Shown one piece after another: positions 38,159-61,617 of a DNA stretch of 64,000 nucleotides. The number at the start of each line of letters is the position of its first letter. Position 1 is the stretch's first letter. A program made the translations under genes and the position numbers. Source of the stretch: an uncultured virus (IMG/VR IMGVR_UViG_3300025871_000007) (Duplodnaviria; Heunggongvirae; Uroviricota; Caudoviricetes); the IMG/VR virus record IMGVR_UViG_3300025871_000007; one strand, 5' to 3'. The notes under the pieces are model-generated. The model was not told the origin of the DNA. It ran no database searches and saw only the letters and a program-made list of their open reading frames with translations.

Positions 38159-41100
38159 ATGTATCATAATAGTTTATGTGAAAAATGTGGATTATGGAAG
38201 GATGCTAAGCATCCTTGTGTTACAGGAAGAGGCGATCCATCAGCAAAATTACTTATTTTAGGAGAAGCCTTAGGAGAACAAGAGGACTTACAAGGATTAC
38301 CTTTTGTAGGTTCTTCTGGACAAAGACTACAAGCATATCTCGATAGATTAAATATCAAATATTATATAAGTAATGCTGTAAAATGTAGACCTACTTCTAA
38401 AAGTTTAAATAGAAAAGGTGAAACTATTCTTCATAATAGAACACCTACTGCTAAAGAAATAAAATTATGTTCAGCAAAAACATATCAGTTAATAGATAAA
38501 ATAAAACCTACTGTAATATTAACTCTAGGATCTATACCTGTAACTCAATTATTACATTTGGGTCTAAGTATGACATCTGTTCGTGGAAGAACGTATTATC
38601 ATCCACAATTAGAATGTCATATTGTACCTACTTGGCATCCTGCTTATTTAGGATACAGTGGAGATAAACTTGTAGAAAAGCAATTTATGCAAGATCTTCA
38701 TCAGGCTATAGAATTATTAAAAGCACCCAGAGTAAGACAAATTAACTCTAATCCGAGATCACTTCAGGATCCTGTAGAAATTAAGGAATATCTGGAGTAT
38801 TTAAATACTATTGAAGAATGTGCCATTGACTTAGAAACAACAGGGTTAAATCCTAGAAAAGATAGGATAACAGATATCTCTTTATGTGCAAAATGCGGTG
38901 AAGGTGTACATATAAGATGGATAGATATACTTCCATATTTTGAGTGCTTAAAAAAACTTCTAGAAAAACCAGAATTAAAATGTGTATTTCAAAACGGCAA
39001 GTTTGATACTGCTTTTCTAAAAGCTATTGGTATTAATGTAGCAAATTTTTATTTTGATACCCAATTGGCTTATCATACAACTACAATGACTTTTGAAGGT
39101 GAAGGAAAATCTCTTTATAGTTTGGAGGTTATGTCTTGGCTTTTAACAAGAGAAGGAAATTACAAAGCAATTCTAGAAGAATTTGGTGGAATAGCAGGTC
39201 ATCAAAATGGAATATTGCAGAAGAAAGCAGAGAAGAAAGAAAAGGAGATAAAGAAGGAACAAGAGAAGAAGGAAGAAAAGAAAAAAGAACAGAAGTCAGA
39301 GAAAACTAAACAAGTAATCAGAGTTCCAGTAGTAGAATGTAATTCTTTATTTGATGATATGGCAGAACCAGTAGTTAAAACTAATATCGCAAATGAATAT
39401 TTTTCTCATTTATCTACTGAAGAAGATGGTAAATTTCTTGAAAAGTTTACACCAGCAAAGAAATTAAGAAGAACATTATTAGAAGAAGATCCAAATATTT
39501 TTATAATAAATGAAGAACAAGAAAAAGAATTACAGACTTATGTAACCTTTGTTTCAGACAAGCTTAAAAAGAAATTAGAATCTACAAAACTAACAGCTTT
39601 AGAGTATTATTCAGCAATGGATGCGGATGTTACCTTTCAAATTTATAAGAGATTGAAACCACAGATAGATTCAGAATTTAAAGAGGTATTTTATGATTTA
39701 ATTATGCCTCTTTCTTCTACACTACAACGATTAGAACAGAACGGTATTCTTCTAGATACTCCTTACATAGATATGCTTTTAGACGAGAATCGTGCTAGAA
39801 CAGCAGAAATAAAAAATTCTTTTTTTAAGAAAGTAAAGAAAGAATTTAATATGGATTCACCAAAAGAATTAAGAGAAGTTATTTATGATCATTTAAGAAT
39901 TCCAGTAGAAGAAGAATATATGACTAATGGTGGAAAAAGTGGAGTAAAAATGCCTTCCACCGATAAAAATGCTATAGAGTATTTAGCTAAAAAACATCCT
40001 ATTTTAAATGGAATTGTAGAATACAGAAAACTCGAGAAAGAAAATTCTACATACTTGGATGGATTTAAAAATCATGTAGATCCTGTTACTGGAAGAATTC
40101 ATACATCTTTTTTGCAGCATGCTACCGCAACTGGCAGATTATCTTGTATAGCTGAAGGTACCAAGATTGCTATAGTAGGAGAAGAAAAAAATATAGAAGA
40201 TGTCCAACCAGGAGATTTTGTTTATAATTATGATAATGATGGAAATTTAACTATTTCTAAAGTATTAAATAAATCATATAGCGGATACGGTGATTGTGTA
40301 AGAGTTAAATGGCAAAGTTCAGGAAATGGAAAAATAGGTGAATTAATTTGTACACCTGAACATAGAATACTACATAAGTATAATGGCTGGACAGAAGCTA
40401 AAGATTTAAAACATTATGATAAGGTATATCACCTAAGAAAAGGAAAAACTTACTCTTATGATCCTCGTCCACGACTATATGGTACAAATTCTTTTTGTGA
40501 AGACGAACAAAGATTTATAAAAAGAGTATATTTTAAGGCAGATCCTAAAAAGACACATATTCATCATATAGATCACAATCCTTCTAATAACAGAATTTCT
40601 AATTTGGAAATTTTAGATAGTGCTGAACATAATAGATATCATTCTAGATTGCTATACGAAAAAGGAATAGTTAGTGAAAGGCACATGCATACATCAGAAG
40701 CGCATGCAAAACGATTACAATCTTTAAAATATGGTAAAGATAATCCAACATATATTTATAAAACTAAAGAAGAACTTATTCAAATGTTAAAGGATGCCAA
40801 AGGTATAGTTACGCATATTCCAATGGATTTTTTAACATATAAACAAAAATGTGAAACAGAAGGTATCAATCTTAAAGAACTTTGTGACTGTTTCTCAAGA
40901 GGTAAGTTTTTTATTTCTCAAGAAGATGTTTTTAAAGTATGGGATAAATATAAAGATTATGAATATCCTATATATAGATGTGCAGGTGAATTGCATATAA
41001 GTCAAGATAAGTTTAAAAGATTATTAAAGTATTATGATATATCAACTAATCATGTAATTCTATCAGTTAAACCTGCAGGTAAATATCATGTTTGGGATTT

Positions 41101-41935
41101 AGAGATAGAAAATTATCCAAATTTTATTGCTAATGAAATCTGTGTTCATAATTCTAGTGCACCTAATACACAAAATATACCTAGAGATAACCGTATTCGT
41201 AATATGATTATTCCTAGAGAGGGATGCAAACTTGTAACTGCTGACTTATCACAAGCAGAATTAAGAATTCTAGCTATGATGGCAGACGATAAGAAAATGA
41301 TAGATGCTTTTGCATCTGGATATGACTTCCATGCTTATACTGCATGTGCAATGTTTGGTATAAAACCAGAGATATTTGATAAAGAAAATAATCCAGATCA
41401 TAAAGCAAAACGATCTCTAGCAAAAAATATTAATTTCGGTATTGCGTATCAAATGTCAGCAAATTCATTAGCTTCAGATGTGAATATTTCATTAAAAGAA
41501 GCACAAGATTTTATTGACAAATTTTACAATACTTATTTTAATGTAAAAAGATGGATAGATAAAACAAAATCTTTTGCTTTAAAGAATGGATATGTACAAA
41601 CATTGCACGGAAGACGTAGATATTTGCCGTATGTACACAGTTCAGATCAAAAAGTTCGTGAAGGTGCATTAAGGCAAGCCGTAAATACACCAATTCAAGG
41701 CACTGCTAGTGATTGTGCTTGTTTTGGTCTTATTAGAATTCAAAAGTTTATAGACGAGAAACAGTTAAAAACAAAACCTATCATGATTATACATGATGAA
41801 ATTGTTCTAGAAACGCCTTTTGAAGAAGTAGAGTTAATGGTAGAAAAATTACCATATTTTATGACACAAAATTTACCAAAAGTAACAATTCCATTAGTAG
41901 CAGACGCAGAAGTTTTAACGAGATGGAAGAAATAG
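38159..41935 (+). CDS. polA: Family A DNA polymerase with N-terminal family-4 uracil-DNA glycosylase domain and an intein
   Basis: UDG motifs GEALGEQED, PFVG, NAVKCRP, WHPAY; exonuclease IDLETTG; polymerase motifs TGRLS, DLSQAELR, AKNINFGIAY, IHDE. Confidence 0.92.
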   Translation: MYHNSLCEKCGLWKDAKHPCVTGRGDPSAKLLILGEALGEQEDLQGLPFVGSSGQRLQAYLDRLNIKYYISNAVKCRPTSKSLNRKGETILHNRTPTAKEIKLCSAKTYQLIDKIKPTVILTLGSIPVTQLLHLGLSMTSVRGRTYYHPQLECHIVPTWHPAYLGYSGDKLVEKQFMQDLHQAIELLKAPRVRQINSNPRSLQDPVEIKEYLEYLNTIEECAIDLETTGLNPRKDRITDISLCAKCGEGVHIRWIDILPYFECLKKLLEKPELKCVFQNGKFDTAFLKAIGINVANFYFDTQLAYHTTTMTFEGEGKSLYSLEVMSWLLTREGNYKAILEEFGGIAGHQNGILQKKAEKKEKEIKKEQEKKEEKKKEQKSEKTKQVIRVPVVECNSLFDDMAEPVVKTNIANEYFSHLSTEEDGKFLEKFTPAKKLRRTLLEEDPNIFIINEEQEKELQTYVTFVSDKLKKKLESTKLTALEYYSAMDADVTFQIYKRLKPQIDSEFKEVFYDLIMPLSSTLQRLEQNGILLDTPYIDMLLDENRARTAEIKNSFFKKVKKEFNMDSPKELREVIYDHLRIPVEEEYMTNGGKSGVKMPSTDKNAIEYLAKKHPILNGIVEYRKLEKENSTYLDGFKNHVDPVTGRIHTSFLQHATATGRLSCIAEGTKIAIVGEEKNIEDVQPGDFVYNYDNDGNLTISKVLNKSYSGYGDCVRVKWQSSGNGKIGELICTPEHRILHKYNGWTEAKDLKHYDKVYHLRKGKTYSYDPRPRLYGTNSFCEDEQRFIKRVYFKADPKKTHIHHIDHNPSNNRISNLEILDSAEHNRYHSRLLYEKGIVSERHMHTSEAHAKRLQSLKYGKDNPTYIYKTKEELIQMLKDAKGIVTHIPMDFLTYKQKCETEGINLKELCDCFSRGKFFISQEDVFKVWDKYKDYEYPIYRCAGELHISQDKFKRLLKYYDISTNHVILSVKPAGKYHVWDLEIENYPNFIANEICVHNSSAPNTQNIPRDNRIRNMIIPREGCKLVTADLSQAELRILAMMADDKKMIDAFASGYDFHAYTACAMFGIKPEIFDKENNPDHKAKRSLAKNINFGIAYQMSANSLASDVNISLKEAQDFIDKFYNTYFNVKRWIDKTKSFALKNGYVQTLHGRRRYLPYVHSSDQKVREGALRQAVNTPIQGTASDCACFGLIRIQKFIDEKQLKTKPIMIIHDEIVLETPFEEVELMVEKLPYFMTQNLPKVTIPLVADAEVLTRWKK
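40145..41152 (+). mobile_element. Intein with HNH endonuclease in DNA polymerase (336 aa)
   Basis: TGRLS|CIAEGT...CTPEH...HHIDHNPSNN...VWDLEIENYPNFIANEICVHN|SSAPN. Confidence 0.92.
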
Positions 41936-43113: not shown

Positions 43114-43581
43114 ATGAAAATACAAAAAAAATTTACTACTGAAACAGCCCATATAGTAAGAGAAGCTTCATCGATTCGTTGCAAGAATAATATACATGGT
43201 CATAGCTATACTTGGATAGTAACAATACAAGGTGGTCTAGATCATGCAGGAATGATTATAGATTTTAAAGATTTAAAACCTATTAAGGATTTTATAGATC
43301 TTTTTGATCACGCAACTGTTTTTTGGTCTAAGGAACCGGATTGTGAAATTCTAGCTTTTTTTCAAGATAAATTTTCAAGAGTTCTTATCATGAAACAAAA
43401 TCCTACAGCAGAAAATATGGCAAGATCACTTTTCAAATTTACTAAAGATTGGTTACAAAAAGATTATCCTACACTTTCTGTTGCAGAGGTAGCGGTATGG
43501 GAAACCGCTACAGGATGTGGTATTGCTACCGAATGCAATGGGAATGATATTTTAGTTTACACTCATTCAGATACTAACTAA
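43114..43581 (+). CDS. queD: 6-carboxytetrahydropterin synthase
   Basis: TAH, IHGHSY, IDFKDLK, NPTAENMA, WET. Confidence 0.9.
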   Translation: MKIQKKFTTETAHIVREASSIRCKNNIHGHSYTWIVTIQGGLDHAGMIIDFKDLKPIKDFIDLFDHATVFWSKEPDCEILAFFQDKFSRVLIMKQNPTAENMARSLFKFTKDWLQKDYPTLSVAEVAVWETATGCGIATECNGNDILVYTHSDTN

Positions 43582-43596
43582 GTGTGGTGATTTTTA

Positions 43597-44028
43597 ATGT
43601 CTTTTAAAAAGGCTAATTTTGTTAATTGGGATGATATTGCTGCCTATTGTAGAGAATTAAGAGTACAAGAAACACCAGATGTAATTTTAGCAGTCCATCG
43701 TGGTGGTCTTCCTATAGGAGTTCTTCTAAGTCATAAATTTCATGTTCCAGTAGAAATACTATATTTTTCTAGATATGATAGTAATACAAAGATTAAATGT
43801 AATCTTTCTAGAAAAGAAGAATATAATAGAATATTAGTAGTAGACGATGTATCTGATAAAGGAGAATCCTTAGAAAGAATTACAGAATTTTTATCAAAGA
43901 AGTATTATATTAAAGAATTAACTACACTTACATATGCAATAAAAAATAAAACACAATTTAAACCAAATTATTTCAAAAAAGAATATGACGATCATATTTG
44001 GTTAATCTTTCCTTGGGAGGCAATATGA
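43597..44028 (+). CDS. Purine phosphoribosyltransferase (Gpt/Hpt-like)
   Basis: RGGL, PRPP loop LVVDDVSDKGESL, C-terminal WLIFPWE. Confidence 0.85.
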   Translation: MSFKKANFVNWDDIAAYCRELRVQETPDVILAVHRGGLPIGVLLSHKFHVPVEILYFSRYDSNTKIKCNLSRKEEYNRILVVDDVSDKGESLERITEFLSKKYYIKELTTLTYAIKNKTQFKPNYFKKEYDDHIWLIFPWEAI

Positions 44029-44711
44029 CAGAAAAAGAATGGAATTTAGATATTACAGAAAGCTTCACGTCCATACAGGGAGAAGGAATTCATGAAGGGG
44101 TTCCTTCCCATTTTATTCGACTTGCAAAATGTAATGCTTCATGTCCTTTCTGTGATTCTAAATATAGCTGGAAATCTGGAGATAAATATGATTATCAAGG
44201 TATTTCAGCACATTTAAGTATGATGTATATTGCAAATCCAAAAGTTAATATGCTAACTATAACAGGTGGTGAGCCAACTTTACAAGATTTAAACCCACTA
44301 ACATCTTTAGTTAAAGATTTTTATAATTGGTTTATAGAAGTAGAAACAAATGGTTTGATTCATAAAGATAGAGAATTGGAAAAAGACGTAGATTTATGGA
44401 TTGTTTCACCAAAACTATACTCAGAAGATATAATAAAAAGATATAATCAAGAAATTTTAGATAGATTTTTATATACGAATCATATCTTTAAATTTGTTAT
44501 AGGAACAGAAGAAGAACTAAGTATTGTTTTAGATTTTATAAAATCATATAAATTGGATCTAGATAATAATATTTGGTTAATGCCTAAAGGTACTTCAATA
44601 GAAGAAATTAGAAAATCAAGCAAACTACTTGTCCCTGTTTGCCTAAGAAAAGGATGGAATTTATCTTCCAGACAACAGATAGTTATTTGGGGCAATAAAA
44701 AAGGAGTATAA
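44025..44711 (+). CDS. queE: 7-carboxy-7-deazaguanine synthase (radical SAM)
   Basis: SIQGEG, CNASCPFCDS, TGGEP, ETNG, VSPK; ATG at 44025 after GGAGG. Confidence 0.9.
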   Translation: MTEKEWNLDITESFTSIQGEGIHEGVPSHFIRLAKCNASCPFCDSKYSWKSGDKYDYQGISAHLSMMYIANPKVNMLTITGGEPTLQDLNPLTSLVKDFYNWFIEVETNGLIHKDRELEKDVDLWIVSPKLYSEDIIKRYNQEILDRFLYTNHIFKFVIGTEEELSIVLDFIKSYKLDLDNNIWLMPKGTSIEEIRKSSKLLVPVCLRKGWNLSSRQQIVIWGNKKGV

Positions 44712-44715
44712 TGTT

Positions 44716-44946
44716 ATGAATTATTATTGTAAAAATGGTGCATATCATACCTATAAGTGCTGCAATACATGCTGGAATTTACATCCAAAAGCAGAGAAAA
44801 ATAAAATGTTTTTCGGTAGTGAGACCTTTAATAAAGTATTAGATCAAAATTTTATTCAAAAAGCAAAACAAGTAGGATTTACTGAGCAACAAATAGAATT
44901 CTTATCACAGATTATTTCTACAAGATTAAGTGTAGTTATGGAGTAA
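44716..44946 (+). CDS. Small Cys-rich hypothetical protein
   Basis: 76 aa, AAGGAG RBS. Confidence 0.5.
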   Translation: MNYYCKNGAYHTYKCCNTCWNLHPKAEKNKMFFGSETFNKVLDQNFIQKAKQVGFTEQQIEFLSQIISTRLSVVME

Positions 44947-44951
44947 GAAGG

Positions 44952-45407
44952 ATGAAAATAATTACAACTTCTGATGGTAAGTGTAAAATACTTTCTTTTC
45001 TTTCTGAAAAGAATATAGCAGCATTTACACTCGATTCTGGTGATTGTCATAATGCAGAACCTATTAAATTAACGTTAAACACATATATCTCCGATTTAGA
45101 TATTATTGCAAGATGTGAGGGTCTTGATAAAGATTTAAGAATTTTTACTGTTTGTTCTTCTTGCCGTAAAACTTATAATGATTGTAGCTGTGATCATCTT
45201 CATTCTATTGCTTCTAATTATCAATTATGTGTTAGAGATCTAGAAGGAAAATTACTAGGTTATATACAAAGAATAGAAATTTTTGGTAGTGCAGATCAAG
45301 ATAAACCTATTGTTAAAATATATAAATATGAAATAGATAATAGTAATACAGAAGATATAGTAGTTAAAAGAGATGAAAATGGACAACCTAAACTTTTTAT
45401 ATATTAG
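44952..45407 (+). CDS. Hypothetical Cys-rich protein
   Basis: CSSC...CSCDH. Confidence 0.5.
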   Translation: MKIITTSDGKCKILSFLSEKNIAAFTLDSGDCHNAEPIKLTLNTYISDLDIIARCEGLDKDLRIFTVCSSCRKTYNDCSCDHLHSIASNYQLCVRDLEGKLLGYIQRIEIFGSADQDKPIVKIYKYEIDNSNTEDIVVKRDENGQPKLFIY

Positions 45408-45480
45408 AATTTTAAGGAAGAAATATCAACAGAAATGTTGTTTGACCGTTTCCTAATTTATTTTCTTAGGAGAAAAGATT

Positions 45481-46143
45481 ATGGGTAGAGATACAAATTG
45501 CGTAGTACTTCTTTCTGGTGGTTTAGATTCAACAGTTATGCTGTATTGGGTGAAAGAGAGATATGATAAGGTATTTCCTCTTTATATTAACTATGGATCA
45601 AGTCATAAAGAAAAAGAATTTTATGCCGCACAACAAACATGTAAGGAATTAGGATTATTTCTAGAAGAAGTAAAGTTAACTGGCAATATACTTTCAGATT
45701 CTTCTCTAGTAGACAAATCTATTAGAACTCCAGATGATTTAAAAGATACAATTAATACAGTTGTTCCATTTAGAAATATTATGATGATTAGTATCGCAGC
45801 TAGTTATGCAGATAAAGTAAATGCCGGTGTAATTGCAACTAGTCCAACACGAGAAGATTTCGATGTTTTCAGAGATTGTAGAAGAGAATTTCATGATGCA
45901 TTAGAAAAAACTTTACAGATTGCTGCAAAGTACGATCAACCCTATCAAATTTTAACACCTTTTATTACTAATACTAAAGAAGATGTTATTCGTATTGGTG
46001 TTGATATGGATGTAGATTTTTCAAAAACCTGGTCTTGTTATAATCCACAAAGAGACGAACCCTGTGGTGTATGTCCAGCATGTAGGGTTAGAGAAAAAGG
46101 ATTTATGCTAGCTGGTGTAAAAGATCCACTTAGGAGAAATTAA
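45481..46143 (+). CDS. queC: 7-cyano-7-deazaguanine (preQ0) synthase
   Basis: LSGGLDS, VPFRN, DCR, TWSCY, CGVCPACRVR. Confidence 0.92.
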   Translation: MGRDTNCVVLLSGGLDSTVMLYWVKERYDKVFPLYINYGSSHKEKEFYAAQQTCKELGLFLEEVKLTGNILSDSSLVDKSIRTPDDLKDTINTVVPFRNIMMISIAASYADKVNAGVIATSPTREDFDVFRDCRREFHDALEKTLQIAAKYDQPYQILTPFITNTKEDVIRIGVDMDVDFSKTWSCYNPQRDEPCGVCPACRVREKGFMLAGVKDPLRRN

Positions 46144-46751
46144 TGCTTAGTTCATTAGATACGTTTTATTACACAGATGAAAATATAGATTATATAGGTG
46201 ATCAACTTCATAGTCTATTCAATTTTAAAACTGCTAATATGATAGGAGATTCTGTTTTTGCTTTTGAAGGAAAAATGGATGTAAAAACTGATCATATGGT
46301 AGATATTGAAGATGTAAAAGAAAATGATTATATCTGGTCGCCTAAAGCTCTTAACTTTATTATAGAGATCTTTAACATCAATATAGAAACTGCAGTACTA
46401 TATCAAAGAGCTTTTATGCAGATTTGTACAAATGTTCTTAAAGATATATTAGCAGAATCAAATATTATAGTTTATTTAGTTAAACTGAAAGGTGATGATA
46501 TTCTAGTTAAAACATTGGATGGAGAAGTTTGGAAGAAGCTTTCTGTATCTATTGCTACAGTAAGTCATATTTCTGGTTTAATCCACGTAGGTATTAATAT
46601 AGATACAGATATGAATATACCTGTTCCAGCAATAGGATTACAAGAACTTATCGATTTGCATGTATACGAATTTGGTGTTCGTGTACTAGAACAATTTAAA
46701 GACTTTCATAAATCTATAAAATTTGCTTCAGTTAAAATAAAAGGTGTTTAA
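46143..46751 (+). CDS. DUF366-like protein
   Basis: YIGDQL, DSVFAFEG, MVDIED, FIIE, YQR, GDDI, KLSVSIA, IHVGINI pattern recognised as DUF366-like. Confidence 0.7.
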   Translation: MLSSLDTFYYTDENIDYIGDQLHSLFNFKTANMIGDSVFAFEGKMDVKTDHMVDIEDVKENDYIWSPKALNFIIEIFNINIETAVLYQRAFMQICTNVLKDILAESNIIVYLVKLKGDDILVKTLDGEVWKKLSVSIATVSHISGLIHVGINIDTDMNIPVPAIGLQELIDLHVYEFGVRVLEQFKDFHKSIKFASVKIKGV

Positions 46752-46754
46752 TAT

Positions 46755-47399
46755 ATGGAAGAACAACTAATTAAATTACTCCAAAAAGAATCGTTTAAGA
46801 AAATGGAAGAAGGAGCAAGACTTCTTCTTGAGGGTTTAGGTGAAGTAACAGCACCAGAATCTACCAGTCCCTTAACAACATATTCGACAATTTCTTTGGA
46901 TGATCCTAATTTTAAGAAAACACCTTATAGGATAGCAAAAGCTTGGGTAGAAATGTGTATAGGTCTTTCGCAAAAACACGAAGTAACAAAAATATTAGAA
47001 ACCAATTTTCCAAGTAATTATACAGGAATGATAATTATTGATTCAATTAATTGTTATTCAATGTGTCCACATCATGCACTTCCTGTAGCTTATCGTGTAG
47101 ATTTTGGATATATACCTTCTGATAAAATGTTGGGTCTTTCGAAGATTCCTAGATTTATAAAACTCTTAGCTAAACAACCCATACTTCAAGAGGATTTTAC
47201 TAAACAATGTATTGAACAATTTGTCGAACATGTTAAACCTGAAGGTGCTATTTGTGTGGTAAAAGGTGTACATAATTGCATGGTTTGCAGAGGCGTTGGT
47301 GCTATTAATTCAAGTGCTACTACGTCAGAAGTCTACGGAAGTTTTGAAAAACTAGAAACTAGAACAGAATTTTTAAATTTAGTTAAAAAGAATACATAA
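46755..47399 (+). CDS. folE: GTP cyclohydrolase I
   Basis: TPYRIAK, SMCPHHALP, GLSKIPR, LQE, HNCMVCRG. Confidence 0.92.
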   Translation: MEEQLIKLLQKESFKKMEEGARLLLEGLGEVTAPESTSPLTTYSTISLDDPNFKKTPYRIAKAWVEMCIGLSQKHEVTKILETNFPSNYTGMIIIDSINCYSMCPHHALPVAYRVDFGYIPSDKMLGLSKIPRFIKLLAKQPILQEDFTKQCIEQFVEHVKPEGAICVVKGVHNCMVCRGVGAINSSATTSEVYGSFEKLETRTEFLNLVKKNT

Positions 47400-47965
47400 T
47401 GGTATATACTAAACAACAAAATATAGAGATATCTAAAAAAAGATATCAGTATGTTCAACAAATCATTAAACTGCTTCCTTCTAAAACTTATTTACATGAA
47501 TGTTCTTTTGAAGAAGACAAGTTTGGTGGATCTGATTTTATAATCATTCAAAAAGCAATTAATGTCAGTTATGCATGTAGATTATTAAATGATAAACCGC
47601 ATTGGGATCGTATAACTTTTCGTGTGCATACTTATGATCATACTGATGTACCTAATCAAAAATATAGTGAATACTATAAAATTCAAAGAGATGAAGTAAC
47701 TTGGGATAGGTATTTCTTTGGTCATATAAATACTAGTAATATAATAACAAAGTGGTTAATTTTTGATAGAAGAAAAGCTATAGATAGTGGCATTTTTAAT
47801 ATGCCAGTTCAGCTTAATAACTTCAACTATCCCAGAAATCTAAAATGGAATGATTCAAAAAAAGAAGATGATAGAACAGGATTTATTTCTTGTAGGATGT
47901 CTGATTTTTTTAAAGTTGGTGCAGTATTACATAGTTACGATAAGAAAGGTACTTTAGATGTTTAA
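47399..47965 (+). CDS. Hypothetical protein, possibly PD-(D/E)XK-like fold
   Basis: EEDKFGGSDF segment; weak. Confidence 0.35.
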   Translation: MVYTKQQNIEISKKRYQYVQQIIKLLPSKTYLHECSFEEDKFGGSDFIIIQKAINVSYACRLLNDKPHWDRITFRVHTYDHTDVPNQKYSEYYKIQRDEVTWDRYFFGHINTSNIITKWLIFDRRKAIDSGIFNMPVQLNNFNYPRNLKWNDSKKEDDRTGFISCRMSDFFKVGAVLHSYDKKGTLDV

Positions 47966-48194
47966 TAATTTTTTTAGAAAGAAAGAAAAAGTAATAATGG
48001 ATACTATACGAGATGATGATACAGTACATTTTCTAACCACACAAAGAATTATTGAAATATTAAATGATCCCAAACTGGCATCAGAAGATGAGATTAGAAA
48101 TTTAGCTTATACTGTTTTAGAAACTTTAGATATTTTAAGTAATGCAATTATGCAAAGTATCACTGATAAAGGTGATCCTTCAAATTTACATTAA
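47958..48194 (+). CDS. Hypothetical protein
   Basis: 78 aa overlapping ORF. Confidence 0.5.
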   Translation: MFNNFFRKKEKVIMDTIRDDDTVHFLTTQRIIEILNDPKLASEDEIRNLAYTVLETLDILSNAIMQSITDKGDPSNLH

Positions 48195-48204
48195 GGAAGT
48201 ATGT

Positions 48205-49380
48205 ATGAGTAATATAATAGAATTTATATCTAAATGTTTTGCTTTTAAAAAACTCAGAAAAGCAAATTATAAATGTGAATTTACTGGTGTAGAACTTTCA
48301 GGAAGTACTGGATTTGCAGTATATTCTATTTATAATATTGCAGAAATAGAAGAGTATGTAAAATCATATGAAAATAAAGATGAGATTATTTACTGGGTTT
48401 TCGATAGAATGTGGGAAGATTGGCTTTTGATAATTTCAAAAGATGTTCACTTCGAGCAAGAAGAAAAGGTTAGACAATCAATTAAATCGTTAGATGACTA
48501 TGCAAAAAAGATTATAGATAAAGTTATAGATAATCTAAAAACTCCTCTAGGTTCTAGAACAGCATATATTAATGAGTACGATCCTACTCTGCTTCTTCCA
48601 GTTAAAAGACAACCTACACGTGAAGCAATTGGATATGAGTATATTCCTTTTGTAGGTCTAGATGTATGGAATGGTTATGAATTATCTTATCTGGATAGAA
48701 ATGGAAAACCTGTAAATAAAATGATTCGTATTGCTTATGATTCAGATAGTGAATCTATTATAGAATCTAAATCGTTAAAACTTTATTTTAATTCTTTTAA
48801 TAACACTATAGTAGAAAAATTAGGTAAAGGTAATATAATAGATATTATTAAGCAAGATTTAAAACAAGCAATTAAATGTAATTCTATAGAAGCATACTTT
48901 ATAGAAACAAATTATATTCATGATTTTGCTAAGTATTACTATCCTATAGATCAATTACGTTGTGATAAGTATTCATATGATTATGACCCAGATTTGCTTG
49001 AAATTCAACCTTCATTATATAATTATCCTATTTTTCTAAAGACAGATTTACTTAAATCTAACTGTAGACACAGTGGTTTACCAGATTGGGGAACTGCTTA
49101 TATTTCTTATGAACCAAATTCTGCGCAATTGGATCCTTATTCTGTTTTAAAATATATAATTTCTTTCAGAAATCACAGAGAATTTCATGAAGAGTGTTGT
49201 GAAAGAATTATGCACGATATCATGTTTAAAATTAACCCAAAATGGTTACGTGTAGAACTTCGGTACACACGTAGGGGCGGTTTAGATATCAACCCAATTC
49301 GTGTATTTGATTCAATAGGTGAGTATAATTATGATTTTCATGTTGAATTTTCTAGATATGCAAGGGAGATAAGGCAATAG
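48205..49380 (+). CDS. queF: Bimodular preQ0 reductase (QueF) with extra N-terminal domain
   Basis: YDPTLL, DVWNGYELS, QueF motif IESKSLKLYFNSFN, KSNC...PDWG, FHEECCERI, YTRRGGLDINP. Confidence 0.88.
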   Translation: MSNIIEFISKCFAFKKLRKANYKCEFTGVELSGSTGFAVYSIYNIAEIEEYVKSYENKDEIIYWVFDRMWEDWLLIISKDVHFEQEEKVRQSIKSLDDYAKKIIDKVIDNLKTPLGSRTAYINEYDPTLLLPVKRQPTREAIGYEYIPFVGLDVWNGYELSYLDRNGKPVNKMIRIAYDSDSESIIESKSLKLYFNSFNNTIVEKLGKGNIIDIIKQDLKQAIKCNSIEAYFIETNYIHDFAKYYYPIDQLRCDKYSYDYDPDLLEIQPSLYNYPIFLKTDLLKSNCRHSGLPDWGTAYISYEPNSAQLDPYSVLKYIISFRNHREFHEECCERIMHDIMFKINPKWLRVELRYTRRGGLDINPIRVFDSIGEYNYDFHVEFSRYAREIRQ

Positions 49381-50968: not shown

Positions 50969-52378
50969 ATGGCAGACGTAAAAGTTAAAGAAAAGAAAGA
51001 AAGTACATTTGTTGCGGATAAAGAACTATCTCCAGTAATTAATCAAATAAATAAAGAATTTGGTACCACCAAAATTACTACTCTTACTAAAGCTAAATCT
51101 TTTGCAGTTAAAAGATATTTTAGTGGTTCTTTTGGTATTGATCACATTACTGGTGGTGGATATACCTATAAAAGAATTCTTTTATTATATGGTCATAAAA
51201 GTAGCGGAAAGAATAGTCAGCTTTACCAAATGCTTGCTTATAATCAGAGACTATGCAGACATTGTAAAGGTGTTCTTCCTGAATATTTTGAAGCAAAAAC
51301 ATACGATAGATGGACAAATATTTTAGTTAATTATAAAAATATACCTGTGTGTAATTGTGGAAAAGCACAAGGTAAGATATTTCTTCTTCTAGATTATGAA
51401 AAGTCGCTAGGTGTAGAAGAACCAAGACCTACTATAGTTAGATCTATTACAAATAGAAATACTGGCGATGAAATCAATGAAAATGATTTTAATCAACAGG
51501 TAGATATTCTAAAAGATCTTAAAGCTAAAGATAAACTAACAGATGTAGAACAATCTATGATAAAAAACATAGAAACTTGGCTACAAAATCTAGATATAAA
51601 AGAACAAGAAATTACTAAGATACCAGAAACCGATTATATGTCAGCTTGTGGAATTAATATCGATAATCTTTTGGTTGCAGAACCCAAGTTTATGGACGAA
51701 GGTATTGATATTGTTAAGAAGATTGTTAAATCTAGAGAAGTAGATGGAATTATTTGGGATTCTATCCAAGCTGCAATTCCAATGTATGTGGAAAAACGAG
51801 ATGCAGAAGAAGCAACAATGGGTGTTGAAGCAAAATTAACAGGTCTTTTAATGAGACAGATTGGTGCAGCATTTGCAGCAGATGATCTTCTTGATCCTGG
51901 CGAAGCATATAAACCTACAGTATTTATTACTTCACAAGTTAGAAGTGAATTAGGTACAATGTATGCTAAACCAGATTCATACTCTGGCGGTAATGCTTTA
52001 GCTCATCATATTTCTCTTGCTCTAGAAGTTAAAAGAGATAAGTTTCTAGATCAAAACGGAAGAGAGGCTGCTTGGGGGACTGTTTATTATGGTCAGCAAA
52101 CTAGAGTTAGAGCAGAAAAAAGTAAAATAAGTTCACCAGGTGAAATGTTCACATATGATTATTACTTTAAGGCAACTCCACAATTTCCTGTTGGTACTAT
52201 AGATCATATTAAAGAGATAATGGATTTAGGTATCGCTTTTTCACTAATAAAGCAAAGAGGACCTTATTTCGATTGCAACGGAAAAACGTTTCAAGGTAAA
52301 AATGCTTTACGAGAAGCTCTTGCAATGGATCCTTCTTTCACTTCACAATTATATAATGATATTATAAAAAGGTGCTAG
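50969..52378 (+). CDS. recA: RecA/UvsX-like recombinase with insertions
   Basis: GSFGIDHITGGG, GHKSSGKN, IIWDSI, TSQVR, SGGNALAHH. Confidence 0.85.
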   Translation: MADVKVKEKKESTFVADKELSPVINQINKEFGTTKITTLTKAKSFAVKRYFSGSFGIDHITGGGYTYKRILLLYGHKSSGKNSQLYQMLAYNQRLCRHCKGVLPEYFEAKTYDRWTNILVNYKNIPVCNCGKAQGKIFLLLDYEKSLGVEEPRPTIVRSITNRNTGDEINENDFNQQVDILKDLKAKDKLTDVEQSMIKNIETWLQNLDIKEQEITKIPETDYMSACGINIDNLLVAEPKFMDEGIDIVKKIVKSREVDGIIWDSIQAAIPMYVEKRDAEEATMGVEAKLTGLLMRQIGAAFAADDLLDPGEAYKPTVFITSQVRSELGTMYAKPDSYSGGNALAHHISLALEVKRDKFLDQNGREAAWGTVYYGQQTRVRAEKSKISSPGEMFTYDYYFKATPQFPVGTIDHIKEIMDLGIAFSLIKQRGPYFDCNGKTFQGKNALREALAMDPSFTSQLYNDIIKRC

Positions 52379-56809: not shown

Positions 56810-57241
56810 ATGAAATTAAAAATAAATTTAGAAAAATTACCTCCTACATATGACTCACTTATTATAGACAGATTAGAAAAGAAAAATCTACCTTCTTGTA
56901 TGGGTGGAATGCTTCTTCCTATTTTAAATCAGATAGAAGAAATAGAAGACACAGATATTATAGCACCTACTGAAAGTATACCAGAAATCAATCGAGCGAA
57001 TGTAGATCTAACAGAAGTTTGTGCTAATTCTGACAAAGTCCTTACAGGAAATAGTATGACTGTTTCTGGTTTAAAACATATACTAGCATTTAAAGAATCT
57101 AAGGCAAATGCTTTTGTAGACCAATGTGAAAAATGCATTAATTGTACGTATATAGAAGTATGTAATAATCTAACACGCAATACACTACAATCATTTGCAA
57201 TAATGCAATCTTTATCAATTAAAGGAGTATCGAATGAATAA
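56810..57241 (+). CDS. Hypothetical Cys-containing protein
   Basis: CEKCINC...C; directly upstream of tubulin; ATG start chosen. Confidence 0.5.
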   Translation: MKLKINLEKLPPTYDSLIIDRLEKKNLPSCMGGMLLPILNQIEEIEDTDIIAPTESIPEINRANVDLTEVCANSDKVLTGNSMTVSGLKHILAFKESKANAFVDQCEKCINCTYIEVCNNLTRNTLQSFAIMQSLSIKGVSNE

Positions 57242-58325
57242 ATTCTTTAGATTTATAGGTTTGGGTCAATGCGGTCTACGAATATCTCAAGAATTTGAAA
57301 AAATGGGATTTTATACGTCTATTATTAATTCTGACGAAATAGATGAAAGAGGATATGAGATAGAATCCGATAGATTGCTTGTTTTAAAAGGAACAGGAAC
57401 AGGTAAATCTTTAAAGATAGGAAAACAAATTATAGAAAATAATAAAAGTAAATTTGAATCCTTTATCAGAAAGAATTGCAATAAGAATGGTGTTACAATC
57501 TTTATTGCAGGAGGTGGTGGAGGAACAGGTGGATCTTTTATTGCTCCTGCAGTAGAATATACAAAAAGTTTAGGGTATAAAGTAGGCGTAATTTATACTC
57601 TTCCACCTAAAATGCTAGGCATCGTAACAGCAAAAAATTCCTTGATTACTTTAAAAGAACTTTTAAAACTTGAAACAGATTTCTTTATGCTGGTAGATAA
57701 TGAATTATTAATAGAAGAAGTAGGAAAAGATGATACTTGGTGGGGTAAGATAAATAGAATGATATTATCTACTTTCTATTCATCTACTGAAATTATACGT
57801 GAAAATAAAACAGCTCAACAAGGTTTAGGTTCTATAGATAGAGGTGAGGTAATTAGAAGTTTAACTTATGGAAAAGGTTATACAGATATTAGAAGATACT
57901 ATCTAACCACAGAAGATTGTGGAAAAAGTGAAGAGGAGCTAAGTACTTTACTTTTTCATCCTCAACTTGTAGAAGGATATAATTATAAAGAATCCAAATG
58001 TTATTTGGTATCGATAGACGTACCACAATCTGGAAATTATAGCTTGATATCAAAGAAAATATTTGATATTATAAAGCATCGCGTAGGTAATGCTATATCA
58101 ATATTGGGTATGTTTACAGATCCACTTTTAAAAGATTCTGTTAAAGTAACAATTATAAATTCTGGATTACAATTACCTAAAATACTCCAATCTAGAATAA
58201 AGAATCTAAGAAGAGATGAAAATGCTTTTCAACATAAACAAGAAAAGGAGGATCAAACTATTCAAGTTATTTCAGAATTAACATTTGATGAAGATCTCTC
58301 ACTAGATAAAGACTTTCAACTATAA
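57234..58325 (+). CDS. Tubulin/FtsZ-family GTPase (PhuZ/TubZ-like)
   Basis: IGLGQCG, GGGGGTGG signature, VDNE, IDRGE. Confidence 0.85.
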   Translation: MNKFFRFIGLGQCGLRISQEFEKMGFYTSIINSDEIDERGYEIESDRLLVLKGTGTGKSLKIGKQIIENNKSKFESFIRKNCNKNGVTIFIAGGGGGTGGSFIAPAVEYTKSLGYKVGVIYTLPPKMLGIVTAKNSLITLKELLKLETDFFMLVDNELLIEEVGKDDTWWGKINRMILSTFYSSTEIIRENKTAQQGLGSIDRGEVIRSLTYGKGYTDIRRYYLTTEDCGKSEEELSTLLFHPQLVEGYNYKESKCYLVSIDVPQSGNYSLISKKIFDIIKHRVGNAISILGMFTDPLLKDSVKVTIINSGLQLPKILQSRIKNLRRDENAFQHKQEKEDQTIQVISELTFDEDLSLDKDFQL

Positions 58326-58968: not shown

Positions 58969-59167
58969 AAATATTTGTATCTATATGTCTGATTATAACC
59001 TTTATTGTTCTTTAGATAAAGAGGTTAGAGAACTATATTATAAAAAATATGGTCAAGCTCTTTCCAAAAGCGAAGTGATTAATAAAGGATTAGCAGTTTT
59101 AAAAGATACATTAACTAAATCAGAAAATCTTTCTGAGCTACCCAAATATAGCAGGATATTCAAGTGA
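58955..59167 (+). CDS. Small ribbon-helix-helix-like protein
   Basis: RNICIYM...LSKSEVINKGL; ATG start chosen. Confidence 0.4.
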   Translation: MRNGRNICIYMSDYNLYCSLDKEVRELYYKKYGQALSKSEVINKGLAVLKDTLTKSENLSELPKYSRIFK

Positions 59168-61617
59168 TAATTTCAGATAAAATATATATTCCATTATGTA
59201 AGTTAGGTGCTAAAGCAAATGATTTAGCTAAGATTTTTACCTATCAAAATCCAGAATATTTTGAAAAATCTAAAATGGGTTTTAGCACCACAAAATGCAG
59301 TCCTTTTCTTGCACATTATGCTTTTCAAGAATCCGAAACAAAGGAAAAATGCATAGTAGTACCTAGAGGTGCTATTAAGAAAGTTAAAACTTTTCTAGAA
59401 AAGAATAATATATCCTTACGCCACTTAGATAACAGAAATGAAGGTAAAGATATAGATATCGAGTTAACAGACACAAGATTAGAACCCCAGCAGTTAGAAA
59501 TCATAGAGCTTTTAAAAGCTAATGAGGGTGGATTGATAGAAATGCTACCGGGCGGTGGGAAGACAATTGCTGCTTTGGGTTTTATCTCAAAAGTAAAAAA
59601 ATCTACTCTTATTCTAGTACATGAACATAGACTTAGAACACAATGGGAAGAAGAAATTAAAAGAAGACTTCAAGGAGATTTTACTCTAGGAAGATTAGAT
59701 GGTGACGAGAAACGGGAAGGTGATATAACAATCGGAATTATTAATTCCGTTTATCTGATGTATAAAGAAAATAAAGATATCTTTTCAAAATATGGTGTAG
59801 TTATAGTCGATGAATGCTTTCCTTGGTATTCTAAAGTATTAACTAATTCTGGATATAAAAATATTAAAGATGTACAAAAAGGAGATATTGTTCTAACTAC
59901 GAATGAGACTACTAAAGAATTAGAATGGAAATCTGTAGTTAACAATATACAAAAAAAATCAAGAAAAAATCTTATAAGTATAAAACTTAATAATGGTAAA
60001 AGTATTGTTTGTACAGAAGATCATAACATATATACTACTAAAGGATGGATATCAGCTAAAAATCTTGTATTAAATGATGAACTTATTACTGTGGATACTA
60101 TTATTTATGGAAGAACTATCGAGAAGAAAAAAGAAAAACAAAGTGATTGCAATTATTCCCTGTTACATTTGTGGAAAAGATGTGGAAATATTATCTGGAA
60201 CTCAAACAAAGGAAACTTACAGACTGACAGGAAGAGCATATTGTTCAAGGGAATGTTCAAAAGCTTATGTCAGAAAAACGAGCAGCGAGACAATGACAAG
60301 AACAAATTTGAAATATCGAGATATTATTGTCAAAAGAATGTTGGAAAACAATCCTTCAAAGGATCCAGAGATAGCAAAAAAAGCTGTACAAAAAAATCGA
60401 GAAAATGGTACTTACGATTTAAATTGTTTCGAACATTGCGGAAATGGGCGGGCATGTTCAAAAGAACATCAATCTTTATTAGATTCTCTGAATTTCATAC
60501 AAGATATTTGGATAAAAGAATGTCCAGTTCCTACCAAAATGGGAAGAACTTCAGGATATCCAACTTGTTACAAATTGGATATTGGTTGCAAAGAATTAAA
60601 AATTGGAATAGAAGTAGATGGGGATACTCATTTAAACAAACAACAGATACAATTAGACAAAAAGAAGGATATATTCTTACAAGGATTGGGGTGGAAAGTA
60701 TTACGCTTTACTCACTCGCAGATTCACGAAAACTTGACATCTTGCGTGGCGAAGATTATGTCTATGATCTTACAATAGAAGATAATCATAACTATTTTGT
60801 GGAAAATATATTAGTACATAATTGCCATCATACACCAGCAAAAATGTTTGAATTAGTAGTAAATAATATACCTGCTAAATATAGAATAGGTTTAACAGGT
60901 ACTGTTAAAAGAAAAGATCAAAAAGAAATATTAATGTTCGATATTTTAGGCCCTGTTCTTATTTCTATAGGAGCAGAGGACTTGAAACATCGTGTTACTT
61001 CTTTTACCTATGAAATAGTAGAGACTAATTGTAAAATAGATGCACCTACAAGAAAACTATGGGCTGATGGTGCAAGAGTAACAAAAGTAGATTATGTTTC
61101 TCTTTTAAGCCTACTGGTTAAAAATCAGCAAAGAAATACTATAATTTTAGAAAAAATTATAGAATCCATAAAAGAAGGATATAAGCCTTTAATATTATCA
61201 GATAGAGTAGATCATTGTAAATATCTTTATCAATATTTATTAGATTTAGGATATAATGTTGTATTATTAATAGGAGCTACACGCAAGCAATCTAATTGGG
61301 AAGAAATCAGACAAGATAATAGCATACAAGCTATTGTAGCACAGCGAAGCATCGCTGAAGAAGGTCTAGATTACCCTTCTCTATCCGCACTGCATTTAAC
61401 CTGTCCATCTACTAATTTACCAAAACTAAAACAAAGAATAGGACGTATTAGACGTGTAGCAGAAGATAAGATATTACTACCTAAAGTATACGATTATGCA
61501 GATAATGCAGTACAATTAAAAGATCAATTTGGAAAGCTTCAGTTTCCATTAAAGAGATCGGCAAGATCTCGTGAAAGTTTTTATAAAAAGTTACAAGAGG
61601 AATATGAAAGTGCTTAA
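59164..61617 (+). CDS. SF2 (UvsW/DEAD-like) helicase with intein
   Basis: PGGGKT, DE|CHH split by the intein, GLTGT, EEGLD, QRIGRIRR. Confidence 0.9.
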   Translation: MIISDKIYIPLCKLGAKANDLAKIFTYQNPEYFEKSKMGFSTTKCSPFLAHYAFQESETKEKCIVVPRGAIKKVKTFLEKNNISLRHLDNRNEGKDIDIELTDTRLEPQQLEIIELLKANEGGLIEMLPGGGKTIAALGFISKVKKSTLILVHEHRLRTQWEEEIKRRLQGDFTLGRLDGDEKREGDITIGIINSVYLMYKENKDIFSKYGVVIVDECFPWYSKVLTNSGYKNIKDVQKGDIVLTTNETTKELEWKSVVNNIQKKSRKNLISIKLNNGKSIVCTEDHNIYTTKGWISAKNLVLNDELITVDTIIYGRTIEKKKEKQSDCNYSLLHLWKRCGNIIWNSNKGNLQTDRKSILFKGMFKSLCQKNEQRDNDKNKFEISRYYCQKNVGKQSFKGSRDSKKSCTKKSRKWYLRFKLFRTLRKWAGMFKRTSIFIRFSEFHTRYLDKRMSSSYQNGKNFRISNLLQIGYWLQRIKNWNRSRWGYSFKQTTDTIRQKEGYILTRIGVESITLYSLADSRKLDILRGEDYVYDLTIEDNHNYFVENILVHNCHHTPAKMFELVVNNIPAKYRIGLTGTVKRKDQKEILMFDILGPVLISIGAEDLKHRVTSFTYEIVETNCKIDAPTRKLWADGARVTKVDYVSLLSLLVKNQQRNTIILEKIIESIKEGYKPLILSDRVDHCKYLYQYLLDLGYNVVLLIGATRKQSNWEEIRQDNSIQAIVAQRSIAEEGLDYPSLSALHLTCPSTNLPKLKQRIGRIRRVAEDKILLPKVYDYADNAVQLKDQFGKLQFPLKRSARSRESFYKKLQEEYESA
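59815..60822 (+). mobile_element. Intein in helicase Walker B motif (336 aa)
   Basis: VIVDE|CFPWYSKVLT...CTEDH...VYDLTIEDNHNYFVENILVHN|CHH. Confidence 0.92.
60107..60778 (+). CDS. DUF559/Vsr-like endonuclease encoded in the +1 frame inside the helicase intein
   Basis: CYICG..., YCSREC, YKLDIG, IGIEVDGDTH, DKKKDIFLQGLGWKVLRF; ORF is open from 60074, ATG at 60107 chosen. Confidence 0.8.
   Translation: MEELSRRKKKNKVIAIIPCYICGKDVEILSGTQTKETYRLTGRAYCSRECSKAYVRKTSSETMTRTNLKYRDIIVKRMLENNPSKDPEIAKKAVQKNRENGTYDLNCFEHCGNGRACSKEHQSLLDSLNFIQDIWIKECPVPTKMGRTSGYPTCYKLDIGCKELKIGIEVDGDTHLNKQQIQLDKKKDIFLQGLGWKVLRFTHSQIHENLTSCVAKIMSMILQ

Follow-up and report, generated by a model that had tools for sequence, protein, structure and literature searches.

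A predicted Vsr-like homing endonuclease gene in the +1 frame of a contiguous helicase intein from an uncultured phage and its relatives

The principle of an intein endonuclease encoded outside the intein frame is known, since out-of-frame and antisense cases are already in print (2025 and 2026 preprints). Dassa et al. 2009 (PMC2677866) described split inteins whose two halves flank a free-standing endonuclease gene of the Vsr-like or GIY-YIG type; Gosselin, Arsenault, and Gogarten (bioRxiv 10.1101/2025.01.02.630785) described contiguous actinophage inteins with antisense LAGLIDADG, antisense VSR-like, or same-strand "frame 3" endonuclease-VII-like genes, and state that VSR-like nucleases are otherwise known only with split inteins; and Phillips, DeSimone, and Gogarten (bioRxiv 10.64898/2026.09.14.751524) described a cyanobacterial dnaX intein with an out-of-frame LAGLIDADG endonuclease. 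Gorbalenya 1998 is cited in the first of these preprints for an antisense LAGLIDADG gene and in the second for alternate open reading frames (ORFs) in dnaX. Taylor et al. 2011 (PMC3239194) established I-Bth0305I as the prototype of the EDxHD homing endonucleases and defined the composite EDxHD motif, and Arsenault et al. 2025 (PMC11855218) described ShiLan-type out-of-frame HNH insertions in phage DNA methylases. Here, we analyzed a helicase gene in a 64,000-nucleotide stretch of DNA from an uncultured virus of the class Caudoviricetes (IMG/VR record IMGVR_UViG_3300025871_000007; the whole stretch is referred to as the window). This gene very probably carries a mobile intein at DE|CHH (the bar marks the splice junction) that splices in cis and spreads by homing, with a separate Vsr-like/EDxHD nuclease gene lying in the +1 frame over the loop where inteins carry their endonuclease.

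Like the nucleases of the fractured genes of Dassa et al., the predicted nuclease is Vsr-like, lies on the same strand at the intein's endonuclease insertion point, and would be an independent gene that has its own start; in both cases, enzymes of phage DNA metabolism serve as hosts, and the nuclease 3' end overlaps the intein C-part by 6-69 bp in the fractured genes and by 12-72 bp here. The fractured genes, however, have a stop after the N-part, a spacer of 27-51 bases, a C-part with its own Met, and trans splicing, whereas the present locus has none of these stops; because its helicase frame is uninterrupted, it would give one precursor that splices in cis. The hosts also differ, being gp41, NrdA, NrdJ, and IMPDH there and a superfamily 2 (SF2) DExH helicase here, and the contiguous out-of-frame form is not mentioned in the accessible text of PMC2677866. 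A fractured or naturally split intein was considered for this locus and ruled out, as the helicase frame has 0 stops in 59815-60822 and is open in 59 of the 70 loci compared below.

The actinophage inteins of 10.1101/2025.01.02.630785 share with our locus a contiguous intein with its nuclease outside the intein frame, an in-frame region that lacks structure while the alternative frame folds, and annotation that misses both. Their Vsr-like nucleases are antisense, whereas ours is on the same strand in +1, and those inteins reside in DNA polymerase, minor capsid, terminase, and thymidylate synthase genes rather than in the helicase of an AT-rich non-actinophage. The dnaX intein of 10.64898/2026.09.14.751524 likewise has an overlapping ORF, a low-confidence in-frame linker, and coexisting intein-free alleles, and frame-dependent selection as found here (omega low in the nuclease frame and high in the host frame); its nuclease is nonetheless a LAGLIDADG enzyme read from a "+2 ORF" within a gene on a bacterial chromosome, whereas the present nucleases are EDxHD/Vsr-like, in +1, and in phage genes of several ATPase families at DE|. 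I-Bth0305I (PMC3239194) also ends in a Vsr-like catalytic domain in which E, D, H, and D are conserved, but it is encoded within a recA group I intron and carries N-terminal motifs of the NUMOD type, in contrast to the four-Cys ribbon and intein location seen here; by sequence, the core of the window nuclease is closer to the DUF559 protein 3hrl (E = 4e-12) than to I-Bth0305I. ShiLan-type insertions (PMC11855218) similarly hold a homing nuclease in another frame of the insertion with the host-gene frame free of stops, but theirs is HNH, without intein splicing domains, and the insert stays in the host protein, whereas here a Vsr-like gene lies inside an intein. Among openly accessible main texts, our literature searches turned up neither an account of a Vsr-like gene lying in +1 on the same strand within a contiguous intein nor any mention of an intein in Vibrio phage CP-T1. 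The novelty implied by an earlier note on this DNA, made from the sequence alone, was nevertheless overstated, as intein nucleases in another frame or strand are already in print; ours is not a new principle but a clean, widespread, annotation-blind example of overprinting, neither the first nor unique to the window.

The features of the locus, in window coordinates, are as follows.

59164..59814, plus strand: N-extein of the SF2 (ResIII/DExH) helicase, ending in Walker-B VVIVDE (Pfam ResIII, 7.4e-21, and DEAD, 2.1e-6; PHROG DNA helicase families; junction VVIVDE|CFPWY).
59815..60114, plus strand: predicted intein N-terminal splicing lobe, residues 1-100, with Cys1 and block B TEDH (His70) (Pfam Intein_splicing, PT-HINT, and Hint; beta-rich in the AlphaFold2 [AF2] model).
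60115..60675, plus strand: helicase-frame "shadow" linker, intein residues 101-287, stop-free, basic, and weakly conserved (AF2 pLDDT [a predicted local distance difference test score], composition, conservation bins, and shuffles).
60676..60822, plus strand: predicted C-terminal splicing lobe of the intein, residues 288-336, closed by His335-Asn336 (conservation, AF2 pLDDT, and an HNYFANGxLVHN block also found in relatives).
60823..61617, plus strand: C-extein of the helicase, first residue Cys+1 (CHHTPA...) (Helicase_C, 7.9e-9).
60107..60778, plus strand, +1 frame: predicted gene for a homing endonuclease of 223 aa, running from ATG 60107 to the stop TAG 60776-60778 in a frame that is open from 60074 (DUF559, relatives, AF2, and PDB matches).
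60161..60256, plus strand, +1 frame: zinc-ribbon-like CxxC...CxxxC motif (C19, C22, C46, and C50), its four Cys at least 90% conserved among 53 sequences.
60512..60775, plus strand, +1 frame: predicted Vsr-like/EDxHD catalytic core, residues ~136-223, with E169, D171, H175, D184, and K187 (conservation and Foldseek).
60685..60778, plus strand: dual-coding segment, nuclease C terminus LGWKVLRF... over the start of the intein C-lobe IGVESITLY...DYVYDLTIE (conservation in both frames).

The helicase ORF (59164..61617, plus strand, 817 aa) has no internal stop, is assigned by PHROGs to DNA helicase, and matches the Pfam families ResIII, DEAD, and Helicase_C with Intein_splicing between them (E = 4e-19). 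The intein occupies 59815-60822 (336 aa, CFPWYSKVLT...NILVHN), directly after VVIVDE and followed by CHHTPA; searched alone, it matches Intein_splicing over residues 8-336 with an E value of 4.7e-20, above the curated cut-off, and also PT-HINT and Hint. Among the 46 helicase-frame inteins that we aligned, C1 (at 59815, directly after the N-extein), H70, and N336 are invariant, and H335 and V334 are at least 90% conserved. TxxH is the form of the intein block B motif, and the window has T67-E-D-H70 there (CTEDHNIYT). The C-terminal junction reads ILVHN|CHH, and since the C-extein starts with Cys+1 of CHH after DE, the spliced motif II would read DECHH. AF2 gave the N-lobe (residues 1-100) pLDDT values of 87-98 per 10-residue block in a beta-rich fold, and values of 74, 96, 70, 86, 97, and 97 for the 10-residue blocks of residues 281-330 and the end block 331-336, with high pLDDT in the strands at E288-299. 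The linker between the lobes (187 aa) contains 28 K, 19 S, 18 R, and 14 N, with a pI of 10.4 and a net charge of +33, and its blocks have pLDDT values of 42-74 with no confident fold. Two PHROG families annotated as DNA helicase match ORF 59164-61614 in halves, phrog_16259 (profile of 330 aa) only over the N-half and intein N-lobe and phrog_9690 (profile of 306 aa) only over the intein C-lobe and C-half; judging from these two half-matching families, phages may also have this helicase in split ("fractured") form.

Positions 60074 to 60778 form an open +1 frame of 234 aa, in which residues 166-231 match Pfam DUF559 above the cut-off (E = 1.2e-10). The product shares 26-44% identity with 52 relatives, and its AF2 model (mean pLDDT of 91.5) has a ribbon, a helical middle, and an alpha/beta core. 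A profile of the nuclease found the DUF559 structure 3hrl (E = 4e-12) and I-Bth0305I, 3r3p (E = 1.6e-3), among PDB sequences, and Foldseek of the model against PDB placed 3r3p at ranks 1 and 2 (template modeling [TM] score to target of 0.68-0.70), 1vsr at rank 3, and 3hrl at rank 5 (0.78). Across 53 sequences, E169 is invariant and D171, H175, D184, and K187 are at least 90% conserved, and these residues align with the IEV.G...D core of 3hrl and 3r3p; the nuclease thus fits the EDxHD/Vsr-like (DUF559) family as defined for I-Bth0305I. In profile searches, the four-Cys region was weakly similar to eL24 and to zinc-finger chains (E = 0.005-0.05), and its CxxC...CxxxC motif probably binds zinc. 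The stop of the nuclease, TAG at 60776-60778, falls within the T-I-E codons of the intein C-block VYDLTIEDNHNYF. Profile searches of both frames gave Intein_splicing in one and DUF559 in the other, and structure prediction gave a +1 product that folds and a linker that does not. This agrees with the earlier note, which had read intact N- and C-terminal splicing blocks around a K/R/S/N-rich middle with no recognizable domain in the intein frame, and in the +1 frame a Zn-finger plus DUF559/Vsr-like nuclease whose stop lies inside the LTIED codons.

Both frames are open far beyond chance. Counted over 59815-60822, stops number 0 in the intein frame, 9 in +1 (all outside 60074-60775), and 34 in the third frame, 16 of the latter over the 223 nuclease codons; at 29% GC, an unselected frame would gain about one stop per 14 codons, the earlier note having expected one roughly every 10 to 15. 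We held the nuclease protein fixed, shuffled its synonymous codons, and counted helicase-frame stops in 2,000 trials per locus. The shuffled window nuclease had a mean of 14.3 helicase-frame stops and was open in 0/2,000 trials, and across the 59 loci with the same layout, 42 (window included) had 0/2,000 open and the remaining, GC-rich loci no more than 7%. An indel artefact can in practice be excluded, because the window agrees with two IMG/VR contigs from other samples, L004 and L005 (1 substitution and no indel over 1,201 nt), and contigs from metagenome runs of three studies align to 59600-61000 without gaps, although the two that span the whole region may be the source of this DNA. The sole difference among the three assemblies is a G-to-T change in L005 (alignment A2 column 641, window 60340), which replaces the conserved Met78 of the nuclease RM..NNP motif with Ile and a helicase-frame Val with Phe.

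The frame under selection could be read from substitutions in five close pairs of relatives (L022/L023, L057/L062, L064/L065, L050/L051, and L008/L013), counted by helicase codon position 1/2/3.

N-extein: 62/35/181
Intein N-lobe: 22/17/60
Overlapped linker: 102/29/22
Intein C-block: 4/2/10
C-extein: 82/54/347

The excess in the linker at helicase position 1, which is nuclease position 3, indicates that the nuclease protein is what purifying selection maintains in this region; the helicase-frame linker peptide appears to change freely and to be kept only stop-free. In column conservation, the nuclease frame outscored the helicase frame in each of the 30-nt bins between 60115 and 60715 (0.72 versus 0.41 at the IEVDG core), and the helicase frame takes over from 60745 (bin 60745, helicase 0.59 and nuclease 0.38). 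With values of 0.56 for the helicase frame and 0.81 for the nuclease frame in bin 60685, the segment of about 60685-60778 is genuinely dual-coding, both frames being conserved on the same bases. We also compared the shadow peptides of 53 loci, which are related to one another, with third-position shuffles that keep the frame open: hydropathy was not shifted (28 below and 25 above), and there was a weak tendency toward a lower hydrophobic fraction (below the shuffle mean in 37/53 related loci) and a lower net charge (36/53). By the genetic code, a helicase-frame stop in the +1 geometry can arise only where AA, AG, or GA follows a nuclease codon whose last base is T, and because NNT and NNC are always synonymous, the helicase frame can stay open at no cost to the nuclease protein. 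The description of the linker as a "stop-free shadow" of the nuclease was therefore accurate, and the proposal that both frames are held open by selection stands with one refinement, namely, that the nuclease frame is kept for its protein and the helicase frame for the absence of stops; across homologs it is the nuclease frame, not the intein-frame linker, that is conserved.

The same layout recurs well beyond the window. A tblastn search of the nuclease against GenBank phages gave 40 records, 37 of them Vibrio phages, and in all of the 30 of these 40 matches that are listed, the nuclease match lies under a helicase-annotated gene or one long unnamed ORF. In the cultured Vibrio phages OZ196825, MG592463, and CP-T1 (NC_019457), the annotated helicase coding sequence (CDS) is uninterrupted, and no nuclease CDS is annotated; the match begins 622, 814, and 1,042 bases, respectively, into the helicase CDS, and as each offset is 1 mod 3, the nuclease is in +1 there as well. 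A profile (A1) of four nucleases retrieved 46 viral-contig and 70 genome-contig loci (116 in total), of which we examined the 74 where the match covers most of the nuclease; the 42 dropped were L005, a duplicate of L004, and 41 partial matches (L044-L049, L076, L079, L082-L091, L093-L100, L102-L109, L111, L112, and L114-L118). At 63 of the 74, the frame relative to which the nuclease is +1 is open for 506-1,148 aa across the nuclease ORF, and the other off-frame never is. Once near-duplicates (L004, L005, L007, L019, L026, L031, L032, L037, and L060) had been removed and the window and the three Vibrio phages added, the set came to 70 loci selected by nuclease similarity alone; 59 of them, among which are three groups of cultured Vibrio phages, share the layout, with the nuclease always in +1.

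Nearly all layout loci have the junctions hhhhDE|CF(P)xGT... and ...HNYFANGxLVHN|C or S, but the exteins vary: CHH in DExH helicases, CHY/CHR...KN and SSILKN in SNF2-like ATPases, and CHxS..QNAxLKxLEEP in clamp-loader or DnaX-like proteins. The same junctions in differing exteins indicate that the composite element occupies the Walker-B DE| sites of several ATPase families. On a quick tree of the nucleases, in which 7 of 50 inner branches are well supported, host-extein classes cluster (17 changes versus 27.1 in shuffles, with 0/200 shuffles as low).

Traces consistent with mobility were also found. An orthologous helicase at L122, 69% identical in the C-extein, has no intein and reads IIDEVHHLP (DEVHH) at the site, IIDEVHHLPAHMF; L122 is located on a 179-kb viral contig. 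Between L022 and L023, 0/567 linker sites differ versus 88/1,365 C-extein sites, and between L008 and L013, 1/525 linker sites differ versus 105/696 C-extein sites; a near-identical intein and nuclease between exteins that differ by 6-15% is the pattern expected of recent homing. No intein-free allele or joint was seen in contigs of four metagenome runs.

We also looked at how the nuclease might be started. In the relatives, the first CxxC has an ATG no more than 15 codons ahead of it in 41/52 loci versus a background of 30%, and a Shine-Dalgarno (SD) core precedes a start in 33/54 loci versus 10.6% per start-like triplet, many of these being strong AGGAGG sequences. The window nuclease probably starts at ATG 60107, which is 18 codons ahead of the CxxC and coincides with the onset of similarity to relatives. 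Of the two routes offered in the earlier note, separate translation is thus better supported by the relatives and is the probable route in the window, whereas access by frameshift is less supported.

Several observations nevertheless weigh against this interpretation. The nearest ATG of the window, at 18 codons, falls outside the 15-codon limit, and no SD core precedes the candidate starts 60074, 60077, 60107, and GTG 60143, while 33/60 ORFs of the window have one; without an SD, expression of the nuclease in this phage may be very low. Coverage by RNA-library contigs of run X15 is limited to 59939-60159 and 60676-60826 and does not demonstrate transcription. The window's own lineage offers one substitution only, nonsynonymous in both frames, and with no variation within the lineage to test, the evidence for selection rests on relatives. 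Foldseek of the nuclease model against PDB gave no match at an E value of 1e-3 or below. Finally, 11 of the 70 loci do not have the layout, namely, 5 free-standing genes, 1 in-frame case, and 5 distant, GC-rich DUF559 loci.

These exceptions show that the nuclease family exists in in-frame, +1-overprinted, and free-standing forms. Free-standing genes lie directly upstream of an intein-free helicase at L056 (DESHH), L033, and L011 and elsewhere at L028 and L077; on the quick tree, L011 and L056 are placed among the helicase-intein nucleases without strong support. At L011 (2950-5087), the helicase downstream of the free-standing nuclease is frame-broken exactly at the DE..HH target motif (IIIDERTPRSSSDL* / NGHHAAAPTY), which may reflect a scar left by repair, an error in sequencing, or a genuine frameshift. 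At L042 (1627-3912), the nuclease family is in frame inside an intein (FVVHN|CRS) of a 762-aa non-helicase protein. L043 and L092 are GC-rich bacterial DUF559 genes, and L101, L110, and L113 are distant loci judged by the frame test alone. No split ("fractured") intein halves were seen among the eight exceptions inspected.

Given the missing SD in the window, we considered whether the nuclease might instead be reached by programmed +1 ribosomal frameshifting or transcriptional slippage, giving a fusion of N-extein, intein N-lobe, and nuclease and no free protein. An A-rich run, GAGAAGAAAAAAGAAAAAC, at 60122-60140, just after ATG 60107, would suit such an event, as would the +1 frame opening as early as intein residue 7-34 in L009, L050, L058, L063, L074, L078, L080, and L081. 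In most relatives, however, the +1 frame opens only a few codons before the conserved ATG, often with a strong SD (AGGAGG), no shared slippery motif is visible in their start regions (by inspection, without a formal motif search), free-standing relatives have their own starts (L011, L028, L033, L056, and L077), and the fusion product would lack the intein C-lobe; we therefore think this route unlikely. The same missing SD, together with the invariant lineage and the lack of any intein-free allele or joint in the four metagenome runs, would also be compatible with a silent or recently inactivated passenger, its open helicase frame inherited and the element no longer homing. Against this, the ORF is full length, retains all conserved Cys and catalytic residues, and has a pLDDT of 91.5, and because an unselected frame at this GC content gains about one stop per 14 codons, decay would show quickly; a passenger is accordingly quite improbable.

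A pair of compensating indels, introduced in sequencing or assembly and masking an ordinary in-frame intein nuclease, has nothing further in its favor than the homopolymer A runs of the region. Not only do the three assemblies and the contigs of three studies agree without gaps, but the same +1 relation is present in 59 loci, cultured Vibrio phages included, and such an error would not leave the helicase frame stop-free, which makes this explanation barely credible.

We thus favor an overprinted nuclease gene in a cis-splicing, mobile intein. The helicase can be produced only by translation through the linker, and the precursor would comprise the N-extein, the HINT N-lobe, a basic unstructured shadow peptide of about 187 aa, the HINT C-lobe, and the C-extein. 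The intein with its shadow loop would splice in cis and restore DECHH, the nuclease would be made by independent internal initiation, most likely at ATG 60107, and it would cut intein-free DE|xHH helicase alleles, whose repair would copy in the whole element. The +1 geometry may be favored since a synonymous T-to-C change in the nuclease removes any helicase-frame stop, so that the two products evolve almost independently; in the opposite phase, an ATG before a codon starting with A would force a stop, and this constraint may account for the occurrence in +1 only, although common descent explains it equally well. More tentatively, and possible rather than probable when taken as a whole, the loci may form a large, old clade absent from the literature that we found, in which +1 Vsr-like overprinting on the intein loop is a stable ancestral state rather than a rare accident, the element moves among the Walker-B DE| sites of ATPases unrelated to one another, namely, DExH helicases, SNF2-like proteins, and clamp loaders, and the arrangement is intermediate between free-standing nuclease genes beside helicases and the fractured genes of Dassa et al., with host-frame stops as the sole difference from the latter. 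On this view, helicase-frame ribosomes that cross the nuclease start may also throttle nuclease expression.

Since gene callers retain one frame per stretch, such inteins would pass as decaying or mini-inteins. A whole clade of Vsr-like homing endonucleases exists as overprinted genes. They provide a natural example of about 200 dual-frame codons in which one frame appears selected for its protein and the other only for the absence of stops, and they place a contiguous form beside the split-intein "fractured genes" that are the source of widely used split inteins. That a presumably splicing intein tolerates a long unstructured insert is of practical interest for intein engineering.

Other genes of the window were noted in passing. 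A 1,258-aa fusion of a uracil-DNA-glycosylase-like domain, a 3'-5' exonuclease, and a family A DNA polymerase (38159-41932, plus strand) contains a second intein (Intein_splicing at residues 727-998) with an in-frame HNH_3 motif; this phage thus holds one canonical-style and one overprinted intein. A RecA-like protein of 469 aa (50969-52375, plus strand) has its RecA match split by an insertion of about 125 aa after the Walker-A region, with CxxC and CxC motifs and no intein profile match. Positions 43114-49377 (plus strand) hold PTPS/QueD, radical-SAM QueE-like, QueC, DUF366, GTP cyclohydrolase I, and QueF-like genes, a 7-deazaguanine/queuosine-type cluster that suggests that guanine in the DNA of this phage is modified. 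A gene for a Tubulin/FtsZ-family GTPase (Pfam Tubulin, 1.1e-9) occupies 57234-58322 (plus strand), just upstream of the helicase region.

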